From Octopus vulgaris (lineage: Eukaryota), in the NCBI GenBank assembly GCA_951406725.2, contig OX597834.1, forward strand, positions 13,702,001-13,766,000: 64,000 bases of DNA. The letters run 5' to 3'. Made by a program: the position numbers and the translations under genes. Shown piece by piece: positions 5,329 through 55,273 of this stretch. Positions within the stretch are counted from its first letter, which is position 1; each line of letters starts with the position of its first letter. A model generated the notes under the pieces. It did not search any database. It was not told the origin of the DNA and was given only the letters and a program-made list of their open reading frames with translations.

Positions 5329-5494
5329 GTACACAAGTACCATAGATGTGGACAAGTACCAAGTTTGTACATGAATTTACTTTCCATACAAATCTTTGAC
5401 AGTTAATGTTTGCATGTTCAAACCTAAAACCTCATGCGATATGGCTAAAATCTACACGAATATACGATAATAATCCACGAAATCAACATTTTTG

Positions 5495-5862
5495 TATCGA
5501 GCTTCGGTGTTGGAGAAGACTTTTACGGATTCCATGGACAGCGAGGCTCACCAATGGAGAAGTTCTTAAGCAGATATGGCCGAAAATGTCGGTAGAAGCT
5601 AGGATCACCAAGCATAGATTGGCATATTTTGGTCATATTATGCGTAGAAAATCCCTGGAGAAGGACATCATGCTCGGAATGGTCAGTGGTAAGAGAGGAA
5701 TAGGCCGACCAAGAACCCGCTGGCTTGACACCATCAGGAGTGATACCGGAATAGACATAGCCAATCTGAAAGAAGCGGCGCAGGATAGAACTGACTAGAG
5801 GACACTGATCCAACGAATGACCGAGAGTCGACTTCGACTGAGCGGATAGAGAGAGAGAGAGA
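5495..5862 (+). mobile_element. 5'-truncated RTE-clade (BovB-like) LINE 3' end
   Basis: ELRCWRRLLRIPWTARLTN...YFGHIMRRKSLEKDIMLG..GKRGIGRPRTRWLD is the typical RTE ORF C-terminus. One in-frame stop follows, then a (GA)n tail. Confidence 0.9.
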
Positions 5863-13464: not shown

Positions 13465-14018
13465 TCAGGTTATCCGGAATGTTCGTGCCGATTTTTAAAG
13501 GAAAGAAAAAGGTCAACAAATACTTACCACTAGATTTTTAATCAACCAAATATGAAACATTTTGTTGCACAATGCGTCTCCTATTTCCTTTAACTTGAAT
13601 ATACCCTCTTCCCAGAATTGAGATGGTTTCATGGCAAAGGATCCATCAAGGTATCTTTTTACGTCATCCAAGGAATTGAATTTTTTACAATTAAGACTAT
13701 TCTGCAGAGACCTGAATAAGTGGAAATCCGAAGGAGCAATATATGGTGAATATGGAGGGTGGGGTAACACATCCCAGCCGAGCTGCAGCAATTTTTGTCT
13801 GGTTCCGAAAGTATCAAGTGCCAAAAATGAACTTTTTTATCTTCCATTTTAAAGGGTTACAGAATTAACACAGGCTATAGGAACATAAATCTTCTTCCAC
13901 AAAAAGATAGCTTAAAATGGAGGTGCAGTGAAATCATATTTTATGGACTCAACCACGTTCTAAAATAAGTCGAAAGGTAAGCTACTATATATCGACACGA
14001 ACTTTCCAGAAAACCCAA
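13465..14018 (-). mobile_element. Internally deleted mariner element
   Basis: Imperfect ~30-bp TIRs (tcaggttatccggaatgttcgtgccgat / atcgacacgaactttccagaaaacccaa) flanked by TA. The N-terminal MEDKKVHFWHL is joined to the C-terminal TRQKLLQLGWDVLPHPPYSPYIAPSDFHLFRSLQN in another frame. Confidence 0.88.
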
Positions 14019-14965: not shown

Positions 14966-15112
14966 ATGTTCATATCGCACCATGAGATAAGACAGAGAGA
15001 CAAAATAAACTAGCAAAAATAGTATTACTGAATAATTCAATATCCTGGATTTCTAGCTTTGCTCCAAATAAGCTCAGTTTTCGTCAGTTGAATATACCAC
15101 ATTAGCACATAA

Positions 15113-16757: not shown

Positions 16758-16813
<56 letters not shown>

Positions 16814-16815
16814 TA

Positions 16816-16867
<52 letters not shown>

Positions 16868-17163
16868 TCAGTAATAATAAAGGGTGAAATTAATTAATTA
16901 GGGATAATTATCAATTACACCAAGTAGATTTCGGCATGTAAAAGCCCCATTCGAGGAAAATTTAAGTAATACTAAGTAATTAAGGGTTTAGCAACGAATT
17001 GCCTCACCAACACACCGAATTTAGAAATAGCAGTCAAAGAGATATAGCTATTCCTTCTACTAAAAGGGGGATCTCAGTAAAAACACAGCACTTGAAAGGC
17101 AAACACAGACAGGTAAGAAAGAAAGAATGAAATGACGGCAATCTATCATGCAATTTTAAGTTA

Positions 17164-17255
17164 CCTACGGACGTACGTTTCGAGATCAAGTTTTAGGATA
17201 GCATAAGAATTAGAAAATTCTACTTTACCCAAACTTCTTCTCTCATCGGCGCAGG
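17164..17255 (-). ncRNA. Type I hammerhead ribozyme-like motif, inverted copy of 17733-17824
   Basis: Reverse complement of 17733-17824. Confidence 0.75.
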
Positions 17256-17732
17256 ATACCACAATTATGAATAATTGTATATTAAATTTTGAGATACTAG
17301 AATGCATCATCTCAACTCAGTGTCAGAGCGAGCCAAAGCATGACCAGTACCACGAAATTCAAAGTTTGAATGAAAGTTTGTGTCACCAGCCCCCTTTCCA
17401 CCCGCGTGTAGCCAAGACAAAATGCTGCGGTCATTTACTGGGATAAAATATGGTTATCAGTAATAATAAAGGGTGAAATTAATTAATTAGGGATAATTAT
17501 CAATTACACCAAGTAGATTTCGGCATGTAAAAGCCCCATTCGAGGAAAATTTAAGTAATACTAAGTAATTAAGGGTTTAGCAACGAATTGCCTCACCAAC
17601 ACACCGAATTTAGAAATAGCAGTCAAAGAGATATAGCTATTCCTTCTACTAAAAGGGGGATCTCACTAAAAGTTGAGATGATGCATTCTAGTATCTCAAA
17701 ATTTAATATACAATTATTCATAATTGTGGTAT

Positions 17733-17824
17733 CCTGCGCCGATGAGAGAAGAAGTTTGGGTAAAGTAGAATTTTCTAATTCTTATGCTATCCTAAAACTT
17801 GATCTCGAAACGTACGTCCGTAGG
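17733..17824 (+). ncRNA. Type I hammerhead ribozyme-like motif (CCGA core)
   Basis: Helix I cctgcg/cgtagg; core CCGATGA; helix II gaga...tctc with a long extension; GAA; palindromic helix III ACGTACGT; GUC cleavage triplet ending at 17818. Confidence 0.75.
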
Positions 17825-18021
17825 TAACTTAAAATTGCATGATAGATTGCCGTCATTTCATTCTTTCTTTCTTACCTGTCTGTGTTTGCCTTTCAAGTGC
17901 TGTGTTTTTACTGAGATCCCCCTTTTAGTAGAAGGAATAGCTATATCTCTTTGACTGCTATTTCTAAATTCGGTGTGTTGGTGAGGCAATTCGTTGCTAA
18001 ACCCTTAATTACTTAGTATTA

Positions 18022-18097
<76 letters not shown>

Positions 18098-22940: not shown

Positions 22941-24217
22941 CAAGGGTTGGACAAAATAATGGAAACACCTAGCATCATAAGATCATTGTTTTGGAGTATC
23001 TATAAAACCGTCAAAAGCTGGTGTATTTTTTTATGTTTTTTAGTTTCTTATTAGTGTTGCTTAATATGTTTTGCTAAAATTGCTGTTGCTTTTCAGATGT
23101 CATCAGAAAAAGTTAATTTAAATTCATTGAAATGAACCGATCTATCTGACTTTCAAAGATGTCAAATTGTTGGTGTTCGTATGGCAGGCACTAGCATAAT
23201 GAGAACAGTCGAAATGTTAGGTGTATCAAGAAGTACCGCCTCAGAAGTAATCACAGCCTTTGAGAAAGAGGGGAAAACCTCCTCGTCGAAACGAAACTCC
23301 AGAAGAAATCCAAAACCTTGAGATAGGGATCGTCGAACTCTTTCGTGAATTGTTAGAAAGGACCACAAAAGTACAGCTTTTGAAATTACTGCAAAGCTTA
23401 ATGACATCCTTGTGAACCCAGTTTCCATAAAACCTGTTCGCCGAGAACTGCACAAGCCCGATGTTACGGTAGGGCTGGAAACAGAAAAACACTGTTTTCA
23501 AAAACGAACATTGCAAAGCGGTTAGTGTGGGGTGAAAAATTTACAGAATTGGTCCCTAGAGTAGTGGAAGAATGTTATTTGCTCGGACGAGTCATCCTTT
23601 ACCTTATTTCCGACTACTGGCCAAGTAAACTTGAGGAGACCTCCAAAAGAAACATTTGGCCCAGACTGCCTTCTTCCAACTGTTAAACCTAGAGGAGGAT
23701 CGGTGAGGATATGGGGCTACTATTTCTTTGAAATCCGCTGGCCCAATAGTTTCACTTCGTATCAAAATTAATATTCATAACTATTTAAGCATTTTATCTT
23801 AACAAACTCATCCTATGGATGGGGAACCCTTTCCTGGGGCAAACGCAATCTTTCATTTAATGCAGCAATTCACACAGCTAAAGTTGTTGCTGAGTGGCAC
23901 GAGCCACAATCTACGGAAGTTGAACATCTTTCTTTTCGGGCCACGACAATCACCAGATCTCAATATTATTGAGCATTTATGGTGCATTGTAGAAAAACAA
24001 GTTAGGAGCCGATATCCTCCACCATCATCACTACAAGAACTGAAGGCTGTTTTAGCTGAAGAATGGACGAAAATTACTTTGAAAGCAATTCAAACTTTGT
24101 ACGACTCCATACCTCACAGAATTCAAGCTGTAATTATTGTCAAAGTTGATCCTCTCCCATATTAAAATAAATTTCTTGGAAATTTTAAAGTGTTTCCATT
24201 ATTTTGTCTAATCTGTG
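22941..24217 (+). mobile_element. Tc1-like DNA transposon, full length with defective transposase
   Basis: TIRs caagggttggacaaaataatggaaacac / gtgtttccattattttgtctaatctgtg, flanked by TA. Transposase relic from about 23132 (DLSDFQRCQIVGVRMAG...) with NVICSDES and SPDLNIIEHLW, broken by frameshifts and stops. Confidence 0.92.
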
Positions 24218-43397: not shown

Positions 43398-43752
43398 TGA
43401 TAAAACGGTAAGATAACAAAAGAAAGAAAGAGACCTCAATATTATGTAAATAGAGGAAATTTATCTATACAATATGTTACATTACTCGGTAGTCAAGATA
43501 AAACTCTGAGTTTCAGATGCCGAAGTGGAAATCCACAACACCATCTCTTCGGTTATCTGGCTATTTGAAAACGTTATGAAAAAATACCGTTAAAAATGAA
43601 GGGAAATTACTCTGTTATAACTCTGCTTTGCCTGCGTACTTATACATCGCTCGCATTTTTCGTCATAAAAATTATATAAAAATACATAAAAATATATAAA
43701 AATATATAAAAATATATAAAATCTTCTTGGGACATAACACAGAAAGCATGTT

Positions 43753-45180
43753 CTATCCGTTTTCTTTAGGGGACCAAAAACGTAACAGAAATTTAGTCAG
43801 ATGTGGGCATGATCCGAAAAGCTCTGTCCTTGTATTTAGACATGTGGTAGGGTCTAAGCTGCTTTTCCAGATAAGCCATCTCTCCATGTCGCATAAACCG
43901 CACCTTCCGCTGCCGTTAGTATAGGGCTTACATCTGGCCAAAATCTTCCATTGTATGTTATAATCGACACCTTTATCTCTTAAAGACCAAATATGATTGG
44001 ATAATTGTGTCGCTTTTCTTTTGTTCCAGTGCCTAAAGCTCAAAGTGTGGTTATTGAACCTGGCCTTGAAATTACCCTCTGTCAGGCCCACGTATTTCTT
44101 CGTCGAAACGGTGTCTTTAGTGGTTATAGAGTTTACGGTAGCTTCATATATGATGGTCTTGGACATGCAAGCTCCATTTAGCGGGCACAATTCTTTATTC
44201 CTGCATGAACAGCTGTTTTCTTCTTGTGTTTTTTGTATGTTATGATTGATTATGTTTTTAAAATTGGTAGTTGAACTAAAACTAATTTTTAAATTGTGTC
44301 TATTGAAGAGTTTCCTATAAGCATGGTTAACTGGAAAATGTCTATCTATCAGTGCTAGGAAATATTTACCTATATTGAAGGCCACCTCGGGTGAGTAAGG
44401 GGGCGTAAACCAGATGACCTTCCTATTTCTATTATTCCTTTTCCTTATTGTTGGGCTGGTGATAGGTGTATATTTTATTTTTTCGCTAAAACCACTATCT
44501 TTTAAAGCTTTATTATAAACTGGGGCAACGCTATTGAAGATGTCCTCATTAGATGAGAGGCTAGAAATCCTCTTACTAATATTTTTAACTAAATTTTTGA
44601 ATACTATAGGGGGATGGCATGAACCTACATTAATATAACTTAGTCTATCATTGGGCTTCCTATAAGGCTTATAAATATTATTATTAAGATCTAAGGAAAC
44701 GTCTAAGAAATTGACAACCGTTAGGTTAGTGTCTATAGTTATACTAAGTCCGAAGTGTTTCATTAACTGGATAATATCCTTCCTAAAACGATCTTGTGCT
44801 GGTCCATTTGTATTAGCTGTTAAGGCGAGGGCATCATCTTTGTAGATGGCGAAATGTACGTTAGGAAATGTCTTACTGAAGGTATCTAGGAGAAAGAGTC
44901 CAATTAGATCACAGATGCCTGCCCCATCATATGAACCCATGCTCACATCGAAAGCGCCCTCCGTGTCGGTGTTTTTTACCCACTTTGCATTCTCACTGAA
45001 AAGTAATGTCTTTCTAGCATGGAAGATTATATCCTTATCATTGGTACTAATTTCTATGAAGTCACTAGCGAAGATTAGGGCTTTATCTAGCAGTTCTTTA
45101 GAGATAGAGGCATAAAAATCAACAATATCGAATTGTGTAAACCTCGCTTTTTTCTTATTCTTAATAGCTTTAAACCAATG
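43753..45180 (-). CDS. 5'-truncated PLE reverse transcriptase plus GIY-YIG endonuclease (475 open codons)
   Basis: The frame stays open upstream of the tracked ORF to 45180. Motifs: FDIVDFY, SMGSYDGA, YKDD, FLDVSL, PYRKP, Cys linker CSC..CPL.G.C, IIYEA...YVGLT...R.NNH, and C-terminal CGLC/CPH. Confidence 0.92.
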   Translation of the reverse strand, partial: HWFKAIKNKKKARFTQFDIVDFYASISKELLDKALIFASDFIEISTNDKDIIFHARKTLLFSENAKWVKNTDTEGAFDVSMGSYDGAGICDLIGLFLLDTFSKTFPNVHFAIYKDDALALTANTNGPAQDRFRKDIIQLMKHFGLSITIDTNLTVVNFLDVSLDLNNNIYKPYRKPNDRLSYINVGSCHPPIVFKNLVKNISKRISSLSSNEDIFNSVAPVYNKALKDSGFSEKIKYTPITSPTIRKRNNRNRKVIWFTPPYSPEVAFNIGKYFLALIDRHFPVNHAYRKLFNRHNLKISFSSTTNFKNIINHNIQKTQEENSCSCRNKELCPLNGACMSKTIIYEATVNSITTKDTVSTKKYVGLTEGNFKARFNNHTLSFRHWNKRKATQLSNHIWSLRDKGVDYNIQWKILARCKPYTNGSGRCGLCDMERWLIWKSSLDPTTCLNTRTELFGSCPHLTKFLLRFWSPKENG

Positions 45181-46089
45181 ATAGGAAGCCCAATGATAGA
45201 CTAAGTTATATTAATGTAGGTTCATGCCATCCCCCTATAGTATTCAAAAATTTAGTTAAAAATATTAGTAAGAGGATTTCTAGCCTCTCATCTAATGAGG
45301 ACATCTTCAATAGCGTTGCCCCAGTTTATAATAAAGCTTTAAAAGATAGTGGTTTTAGCGAAAAAATAAAATATACACCTATCACCAGCCCAACAATAAG
45401 GAAAAGGAATAATAGAAATAGGAAGGTCATCTGGTTTACGCCCCTTACTCACCCGAGGTGGCCTTCAATATAGGTAAATATTTCCTAGCACTGATAGATA
45501 GACATTTTCCAGTTAACCATGCTTATAGGAAACTCTTCAATAGACACAATTTAAAAATTAGTTTTAGTTCAACTACCAATTTTAAAAACATAATCAATCA
45601 TAACATACAAAAAACACAAGAAGAAAACAGCTGTTCATGCAGGAATAAAGAATTGTGCCCGCTAAATGGAGCTTGCATGTCCAAGACCATCATATATGAA
45701 GCTACCGTAAACTCTATAACCACTAAAGACACCGTTTCGACGAAGAAATACGTGGGCCTGACAGAGGGTAATTTCAAGGCCAGGTTCAATAACCACACTT
45801 TGAGCTTTAGGCACTGGAACAAAAGAAAAGCGACACAATTATCCAATCATATTTGGTCTTTAAGAGATAAAGGTGTCGATTATAACATACAATGGAAGAT
45901 TTTGGCCAGATGTAAGCCCTATACTAACGGCAGCGGAAGGTGCGGTTTATGCGACATGGAGAGATGGCTTATCTGGAAAAGCAGCTAGACCCTACCACAT
46001 GTCTAAATACAAGGACAGAGCTTTTCGGATCATGCCCACATCTGACTAAATTTCTGTTACGTTTTTGGTCCCCTAAAGAAAACGGATAG
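45181..46089 (+). pseudogene. Inverted copy of the PLE thumb and GIY-YIG region with two 1-bp deletions
   Basis: Protein identical to the minus-strand ORF over 45458-45988. Deletions near 45441 (cccc versus ccccc) and 45986 (gctag versus gcttag). Confidence 0.88.
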
Positions 46090-46282
46090 AACATGCTTTC
46101 TGTGTTATGTCCCAAGAAGATTTTATATATTTTTATATATTTTTATATATTTTTATGTATTTTTATATAATTTTTATGACGAAAAATGCGAGCGATGTAT
46201 AAGTACGCAGGCAAAGCAGAGTTATAACAGAGTAATTTCCCTTCATTTTTAACGGTATTTTTCATAACGTTTTCAAATAGCC

Positions 46283-46345
46283 AGATAACCGAAGAGATGG
46301 TGTTGTGGATTTCCACTTCGGCATCTGAAACTCAGAGTTTTATCT
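46283..46345 (+). ncRNA. HHR-like motif in the PLE 3' region (CCGA core); mirror copy at 43496-43558 (-)
   Basis: Helix I agataa/ttatct; CCGAAGA; helix II gatg...catc; extra U; GAA; helix III actc-a-gagt; GUU triplet. Confidence 0.65.
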
Positions 46346-46374
46346 TGACTACCGAGTAATGTAACATATTGTAT

Positions 46375-46857
<483 letters not shown>

Positions 46858-54006: not shown

Positions 54007-55273
54007 CGAGGGGCGTTCAATAAGTAATGCCCCTGACCTACTTCCCATAGCAGTAGAGCAACGAAACATAGCACAGTTATTAGTCTTTTTCTATATAGGA
54101 ACCACCCAGAGTTACGCATTTCTCTCATCGTGTGATGCAGCTTTGGAGACCGTTTTTGTAGAAGACCCCAGCTTGGTCCTCCAACCACGACGTGACTTCA
54201 GAAATCAAGGCTGCATCATTTGGAAAACACTTTCCTTTCAAAAACAACTTCATGGCTGGGAAGAGGTGAAAATCAGAGGGTGCAAGGTCAGGAGAGTAGG
54301 GGGGTGGGGGAGGAGTCCATAGCCTGTGCTTCTGATCTGGCGACAGTTAGTTGTGGACCGGAGCGTTGTCCTGCAGGAGGAGGATGCCTTTTCTGATATT
54401 GTCCCGCCTCTTGATTTTGATAGCTTCTCTTAATTTCCTCAAAAGTGAAGCATAATAGGCTCCTATAATTGTGGTACCCTTTGCCAGGAAATCTATCATC
54501 ACTACTCCGTCCTGGTCCCAGAAGACTGTGAGCATGACCTTGCCAGCGGAGCGCTGCACCCTTGCCTTGTCACGGTGCTTCCACTGCATTGACTGGGCTT
54601 TGGTCTCTGGATCATAGTGATGGACCCAGGTTTCATCCTGTGTAATCAGACCTTTGAAAAAAATTGACTCATCTTCTTGGCATATCTCCAAATTCATCCT
54701 CGAGCACTCGACGCGTTCTTGCTTCTGGAAAGATGTGAGCAACCTGGGAATCCATCTGGCAGACACCTTTTGCATATGCAAATTGTCATGAATGATAGTT
54801 TCCACGGACCCGGTACTAATCTTGACCTCATGGGCTATTTGGCGAATAGTTATGCGTCGATCTTCCAAAATGGCAGCCTCAACTTGACGGACAGATGCCT
54901 CATCAATGGAAGAAGGGGCGACCAGATCTGGGAGCTGTTTCCACAGAGTTCCGACCATGTTTGAATTCATGATGCCAGCGTTTTACAAGGTCATATGATG
55001 GGGCATCATCACCATAAGTTACTTTCATTTCATCAAAAGTCTCCCGTGGTGTGCGTCCTTTCAAATATAAAAACCGGATCACTGCTCGACACTCAACAGG
55101 CTCCATTTCACACTTGACTCAGTTAAAACACCTGTAAATCCGAAACCACAATTAGTTCAGAGCTGTAATTTGCCACTTAATCTATAGAGATATAAGTAAT
55201 TGCACATGCAAAATTTCATCTTGATCAAACAAATGCAAGTGTGTCAGAGACATTACTTATTGAACGTCCCTCG
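54007..55273 (-). mobile_element. Mariner DNA transposon, near full length with frameshifted transposase
   Basis: TIRs cgaggggcgttcaataagtaatg / cattacttattgaacgtccctcg flanked by TA. Transposase from 55106 (MEPVECRAVIRFL..HTH) with WIPRLL, TQDETW, LQDNAPVH and a downstream YSPDLAPSDFHLF motif. Confidence 0.93.

Follow-up and report, generated by a model that had tools for sequence, protein, structure and literature searches.

How does a repeat that encodes no protein come to lie in a genome as two opposed arms, one of them longer than a single unit, with simple TA sequence on both outer sides? The question is raised by positions 16864 to 18025 of the window (the whole 64,000-nucleotide stretch of Octopus vulgaris contig OX597834.1 that was analyzed), where a sequence-only reading had described a 589-bp tandem hammerhead element with a fold-back end. 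The features of the locus, in window coordinates, are as follows.

16761-16863, no strand: (TA)n target, adjoining the 3' end of the long arm
16864-17452, minus strand: full 589-nt unit of the long arm (unit position p = 17453 minus window position), with its 3' end at site 2
17453-17665, minus strand: preceding unit, 5'-truncated (unit 377-589), an exact direct repeat without hammerhead
17666-17671, no strand: junction between the 5' ends of both arms, with one mismatch or a short local duplication, and a 1-nt overlap
17671-18025, plus strand: inverted second arm (unit 136-490), with its 3' end at site 1
18024-18092, no strand: (TA)n target, adjoining the 3' end of the short arm
16963-16972, minus strand: site 1 (unit ~481-490), a preferred 3' junction with (TA)n and putative start of reverse transcription
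16864-16878, minus strand: site 2 (unit ~575-589), the other preferred 3' junction and putative start of reverse transcription
16864-17068, minus strand: conserved 3' module (unit ~385-589), with 75-94% identity to sister ORF-less families and a common predicted fold
17164-17255, minus strand: hammerhead motif of type I, covering unit 198-289, with cleavage predicted at 17170/17169 (unit 283/284)
17733-17824, plus strand: copy of this hammerhead motif carried by the inverted arm, with cleavage predicted after 17818

The layout given by the sequence-only reading holds to the base: the 213-bp direct repeat (16864-17076 = 17453-17665, period 589) and the 355-bp inverted repeat (16963-17317 versus 17671-18025) are both exact, (TA)n flanks both sides, and the statement that no reverse transcriptase (RT) or endonuclease is encoded agrees with a longest stop-free frame of 79 codons in the doubled unit. 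The 5-nt linker that had been placed between the arms is better described as an extension of the direct repeat up to 17671 that contains a single mismatch, or else as 8 nt duplicated locally, and the other arm overlaps it by 1 nt. One arm ends at unit 589 and the other at unit 490, and both arms have been read through the predicted cut.

In the hammerhead motif, stem I has 6 bp, stem II is 61 nt long, and stem III is palindromic; at its fourth position the core carries C. A motif scan finds the type I arrangement and the cut site (17818/17819, plus strand) just as they had been proposed, but the term "minimal" does not suit a hammerhead with a stem II of 61 nt, and its core has C where the core motif quoted in Craig et al. 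(PMC8557442) has U at position 4. The earlier statement that both orientations carry a hammerhead is true of the two strands of the window, but only because the second arm is inverted; a strict motif scan of the antisense of the 589-nt unit finds none. An ambisense viroid-like RNA, with a ribozyme for each polarity, was considered and rejected, since the strict scan yields one motif and its inverted copy only. The assignment of a type I hammerhead to each unit of the family comes from the motif scan together with covariation across families, and is made without an Rfam match: no hammerhead model is among the 7 rows returned for 16864-18025, even at an E value of 10. (For the window as a whole, the 150 matches listed out of 230 are nearly all to microRNA models.) Stem I is fully paired in 8 sequences from four families, with 4 of its 6 pairs changed on both sides, a count that does not translate into a probability because the sequences are related. 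In the family of the window copy (family A), a stem II pair has both sides changed in 11-12 loci, and shared variants are not measurably rarer in the hammerhead core (1 of 13 positions) than elsewhere (44 of 543; not significant). The predicted fold of the unit is better than that of 100 out of 100 shuffled sequences (z -6.25); the minimum-energy fold pairs part of the hammerhead core, and forcing the hammerhead fold on the circular unit costs 3.9 kcal/mol. (A second type I hammerhead-like motif lies on the minus strand at 15020-15100 of the window, beside a TA tract, and ~100 nt further on there is a 15-nt match to the retrozyme module; this is possibly a short copy of a distant relative.)

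The search of the genome (2.8 Gb in 227 contigs) places the locus within a sizeable family. A family-specific 30-mer has 650 exact matches, while a control 30-mer has 0, and a search with the unit itself, in which 40 of 2,136 candidates were scored, gave 168 matches, nearly all at 97-100% identity. The family is thus young, as had been supposed, and, again as supposed, it consists of many tandem copies that lack an RT. Two samples were drawn from it. The census takes every listed 30-mer match on the two largest contigs, with no selection for length (99 matches, which resolve into 56 insertions), and by proportion would imply ~370 insertions genome-wide as a lower bound; the second set, of 31 loci from the top matches, is length-biased and includes the window locus. 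The 56 census loci comprise 31 simple two-armed, 23 one-armed, and 2 complex insertions. Arms range from <100 nt to ~10.5 units, the units being joined head-to-tail with a period of 589 up to ~10 times with no ORF between them, and the 3' flanks of the census arms are (TA)n-like in 77 of 85. The arrays are permuted and truncated and end straight in (TA)n, and no long terminal repeats surround an internal region. By these sequence features the element is classed as a non-LTR retrozyme, a published class to which this family is an added member.

Three sister families, all ORF-less and older, are present: B with a period of ~580; C with a period of 583-584, ~90% identity, and U at core position 4; and D with a period of 591. 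Unit 385-589 is common to all three at 75-94% identity and has a common predicted fold of 47 pairs, 5 of them with both sides changed, although the control for this fold is lenient because the structure was derived from the alignment itself. This 3' module may be the recognition element for the reverse transcriptase. The substitution rate, measured over 40 loci, is 0.39% inside one arm, 0.44% from one arm to the opposite one, and 1.66% from locus to locus. Among the youngest loci, the arms are no closer to each other than to their nearest neighbor at another locus. Contigs of runs labelled as three other organisms cover 30 of 30 bins of the unit, and those of a fourth, at low depth, cover 19 of 30. 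Further hammerhead families occur in the flanks of the loci examined (L076, L113, L131, L145, L162, L182, L189, L190, L261, L269, L278, L293, L298, L305, L306, L315, and L024); many have a long stem II and a palindromic stem III, and most end in (TA)n. L131 holds a young tandem of ~540 nt, and L182 and L189 look like tandems too. In addition, L096-L105 form a tandem array with a period of ~1.9-2.3 kb, whose unit is a family-B copy plus a palindromic element plus (TAA)n, a local amplification of a composite.

What sets these insertions apart is where their arms end. The 3' ends fall at two places, unit ~481-490 and ~575-589, both away from the ribozyme cut. (In BLAST output the positions are 484/493 and 579-589, a shift due to a few bases that match (TA)n as well.) In the census, every one of the 26 insertions in which both arms end at preferred 3' sites uses one of each (binomial p 1.5e-8); these 26 come from the 31 simple two-armed loci, the other 5 having one arm that ends elsewhere. 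The rule is kept in 15 of 16 such loci in the second set, where a further 4 two-armed loci have one end elsewhere and 4 loci are complex, and the window copy also obeys it. It extends to the sister families: 12 of 12 in family C (15 two-armed among 25 loci), and 12 of 12 in family D (14 two-armed among 18 loci; ends taken from alignment to family A) after removal of one false case, in which the arm runs on. The use of one fixed site per arm points to two primings, of which coupled twin priming is the simplest reading. Moreover, 6 loci together have seven substitutions that are found at no other locus and that are fixed, on both arms, in every one of at least 3 passes. As a whole, the family has the footprint of PLE (Penelope-like element) insertions, with partial tandems, an inverted 5'-truncated arm, a tail at one end, and a (TA)n target.

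The nearest candidate for a helper lies in the window itself.

43398-46371, minus strand: PLE in two arms, 5'-truncated, whose linker motif is that of the Hydra clade; as a helper type, a candidate at most

This PLE has the CxCX5C linker that defines the Hydra clade, and its family is very young and abundant (34,937 search candidates, of which all 116 scored are 99-100% identical), with frames of up to ~717 aa; Pfam names no family for the Hydra-type protein, and its homologues are without names. It carries a hammerhead of its own, with C at core position 4, as well as two fixed 3' ends and a (TA)n target, and the two-site rule holds in 6 of the 6 two-armed insertions seen whole. It shares no detectable sequence with the 589-nt unit, so the link between them, drawn from common target and geometry, is that of a candidate. 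BLAST of the unit gives no match to this Hydra-1 family, to a decayed Hydra family, to Hydra families of ~960 and ~840 aa, or to a 781-aa family called Neptune-like from its linker motif. Likewise, in terminal alignments of five retrozyme families to six PLE ends at three lengths, the 3' end of the 840-aa family being left out, the best z in 90 comparisons is an unconvincing 3.0, and a short terminal motif that had seemed common to retrozyme and PLE was dropped. Of the Hydra-type families, one resembles the unit in its long-stem hammerhead and in the distance from the cut to the first end, 202 nt as compared with ~200 in the unit, but the similarity of its termini is not significant. The footprint was likely left by a Penelope-type enzyme, with the PLE types compared being candidates only.

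Several other elements were met in the same searches. Two of the Hydra-type families (L378-L391) have intact frames of ~960 and ~840 aa with an Asn-rich insert and 3' UTRs of at least 2.4 kb; the Neptune-like family (L192, L392-L397) combines an intact frame of 781 aa with a 3' UTR rich in repeats, and has a hammerhead-like motif of variant form and a pair of 3' ends spaced ~38 nt apart. Directly after the PLE in the window, at 46434-46710, a long imperfect inverted repeat with a microRNA-model match lies between two (TA)n tracts and may be another two-armed element. At L181:1480-3024, one family-D copy is fused without spacer to an internally deleted retrotransposon, presumably of Dong/R4 type; this is the only such case in 50 loci. 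Dong/R4 was tried as helper and rejected: the single matching locus is the query's own junction, and two copies with long ORFs have unrelated UTRs that end in (TAA)n. Elsewhere in the window, ORF fragments at 54347-54982, 13513-13836, and 23803-24165 presumably derive from Tc1/mariner transposases, and one at 5400-5798 presumably from the end of a LINE reverse transcriptase, all judged by eye.

The 5' ends of the arms bear on the role of the ribozyme. In the census, 13 of 85 fall at unit 284-304, compared with the 2.6 that exposure would predict (Poisson p 4e-6). No other 21-nt window of the unit scores as high as this one, whose first base directly follows the predicted cut; the window just before 284 holds 1 versus 2.7 expected. 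When one arm is counted per locus, 8 ends are found versus 1.7 expected; in the length-biased set there are 5 versus 1.6, although there this is not the top window. Such a pile-up fits an RT running off cleaved RNA. (Part of the pile-up could reflect stalling at structure or biased joining, since positions 290-291, which hold seven of the 13 ends, are a near-palindrome at the 3' edge of stem I.) The two arms of a locus tend to share their fate: where both reach the cut, they behave alike in 8 of 9 census loci, 3 with both stopping and 5 with both reading through (p 0.03). Overall, 59 of 71 passes read through the predicted cut.

Taken together, these results argue for a single two-armed insertion, in which the inserted element is a young 589-nt hammerhead repeat without an ORF. 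The insertion was probably carried out by a borrowed RT-endonuclease of Penelope-like type that would nick both strands of (TA)n and prime two cDNAs at the two fixed sites of one, likely circular, RNA. In such a process, source loci with at least two tandem hammerheads would be transcribed, and self-cleavage at unit 283/284 would release 589-nt monomers, part of which, by analogy with published retrozymes, would be ligated to circles. The enzyme, likely a dimer, would bind the conserved 3' module, and each target strand would prime at its own site (~481-490 or 575-589). On a cleaved linear RNA both cDNAs would run off at or just after 284, while on a circle they would read through for many rounds. 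In the last step, short homology would serve to join the two cDNA ends, so that the arms lie head to head and (TA)n borders them on the outside. With one hammerhead per arm and one per sense transcript, the window copy can release no 589-nt monomer and would be a dead-end daughter. At least two complete hammerheads are found within one arm in 10 of 54 census loci, and loci of this kind could supply multimers.

Three other accounts of the locus fare poorly against this twin-primed insertion. That the inverted arm is a fold-back, in which one cDNA primes itself and copies its own strand, would suit the identity of the arms in the window copy and the symmetric junctions of some loci, where overlaps of 7-15 nt occur at near-palindromes; nevertheless, it is unable to explain why, in all 26 census cases, the second arm has its outer end at whichever fixed site the first arm does not use, and in the window the 5' ends of the arms, at unit 377 and unit 136, show no mirror symmetry. 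The fold-back is therefore largely refuted, and the "fold-back end" of the sequence-only reading with it. It is just as improbable that the unit is a mere pseudo-LTR or UTR of an autonomous PLE and its copies truncated insertions. PLEs do yield the same tandem and inverted structures, according to the part of PMC8557442 that treats them, and 24 of 57 Xenopus retrozyme families are reported to match transposable elements, nearly all PLEs, at their termini (10.64898/2026.07.22.740005). In addition, the comparison covered part of the PLE diversity of the genome, the Hydra and Neptune-like types. Against this, the ORF-free units follow each other with a period of 589 up to ~10 times, and the unit runs into an ORF in none of the 56 census or 31 further loci, although the sequence-only reading had allowed that the monomer might always adjoin a PLE ORF; a contiguous RT plus GIY-YIG ORF is likewise absent from the unit loci. 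Same-strand PLE fragments 629-1269 nt upstream of the module occur in five of 147 module-bearing loci, and in the four examined they are parted from it by (TA)n or an inverted arm. The pseudo-LTR account thus fails for every PLE family compared (four Hydra-type, one Neptune-like). An assembly artefact, suggested by repeats that are 100% identical between microsatellites and by a locus that none of the public-run contigs compared spans as a whole, can be set aside almost entirely: the same architecture recurs with different junctions in dozens of other loci, the window locus keeps the family's two-site rule, and the family's inverted joints are present in contigs of a public run.

The more serious rival retains twin priming and changes the template, to a linear, incompletely cleaved multimer transcribed from tandem source loci, with arrays growing by unequal exchange and no circle being involved. 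It is the less likely account but carries real weight. The greater-than-unit window copy fits a circle but also an uncleaved multimeric transcript, and the contigs over the unit in three public runs, which may be of RNA, do not separate a circle from a genomic tandem. The change U4C reduces hammerhead activity in vitro (PMC3088659), so slow cleavage is expected of the C4 core, which favors uncleaved multimers too; the loci with at least two hammerheads in one arm would provide them; and unequal crossover has been proposed for local amplification by Li et al. (10.64898/2026.07.22.740005). Hammerhead mutants, furthermore, were neutral for PLE insertion in the in vitro assays of PMC11167929. While 110 of 121 within-locus variants are singletons, 11 recur in more than one unit, which argues for some multimeric templates, later exchange, or assembly polishing, and three sites are shared in register between arms; neither pattern is predicted by a circle made from a single monomer. 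(The register comparison, 8 of 58 for these three sites versus 12 of 184 out of register, is a weak test of circle versus multimer.) The predicted ligation site is not enriched in errors (3 of 137). What speaks against a linear multimer is how seldom the cut stops a later pass (1 of 23) compared with a first pass (12 of 48; p 0.048); cleaved monomers mixed with closed templates would give such a difference. Moreover, most unit-specific variants are not shared in register, the private variants are fixed across several units and in both arms, and with internal starts and 5' truncation the daughters of linear templates should only be shorter than their parents. On balance, a circle is about twice as probable as a multimer.

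A fuller version of the circular-template reading can be put forward tentatively, at somewhat less than even confidence: a PLE dimer would copy a single ribozyme-made circular RNA from both nicked strands at once, with one fixed start per strand, cleaved monomers giving short insertions that end at the cut and ligated circles giving arrays of many rounds. A single mechanism would then account for the inverted and tandem copies, for the PLE tail, and for what the hammerhead does; the helper would recognize an RNA fold rather than a common sequence, and a 589-nt RNA would be enough for testing. A short RNA without an ORF is in any case a convenient substrate for in vitro work.

Among known systems, L1 twin priming also produces inverted, truncated insertions from two primers on one RNA; in the octopus family both primers would lie at fixed structured sites near one module, and the arms copy overlapping sequence. 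The closest relatives of the element itself are tandem type I hammerhead repeats that are expressed as circles and have been proposed to ride on PLEs (PMC7229834; 10.64898/2026.07.22.740005). As described in the accessible text of those two papers, metazoan non-LTR retrozymes resemble the present family in being ORF-less tandems of low GC content, with a type I hammerhead per unit, a stable predicted fold, and PLEs alongside. At 589 nt, the unit keeps within the limits of 51-972 bp given by Li et al. and exceeds the 170-400 nt of the invertebrate circles that were tested in 2020 (PMC7229834); it differs further in its C4 core, its 61-nt stem II, and the lack of a matching PLE terminus among the families compared. 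Li et al. report cleavage for 1 of 9 Xenopus dimers. Dispersed two-armed (TA)n insertions that follow a two-site rule are a feature of the octopus family and do not figure in the accessible text of either retrozyme paper.

Endonuclease-bearing PLEs, including the Hydra clade, share the partial tandems, the inverted 5'-truncated copy, the (TA)n target, a terminal hammerhead, and a tail that is often at one end only, as far as the relevant sections of PMC8557442 describe them; the unit differs from them in having no ORF, a tail of ~100 nt rather than 30-40 nt, and no sequence match to the families compared. The protein of the Anolis Poseidon PLE cleaves and extends both strands in vitro, has two internal initiation sites, and is predicted to form a dimer (PMC11167929). 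In the parts of that study that concern these points, however, the strands do not differ in start site, hammerhead cleavage is not needed, and no RNA reads end at the cut, whereas in the octopus family the sites are coupled, one per arm, and the 5' ends gather at the predicted cut, which suggests that cleaved RNA serves as template in vivo. In the parts of the open-access literature consulted, no description of the one-site-per-arm rule or of the pile-up at the cut was found, though subscription journals and supplements could hold one. The family thus adds countable footprints for two questions that are open in the literature, the origin of the tandem and inverted insertions of PLEs and the role of the hammerhead in the life cycle, and under its one-site-per-arm rule two published observations, the pair of start sites and the extension of both strands, become parts of a coupled reaction.
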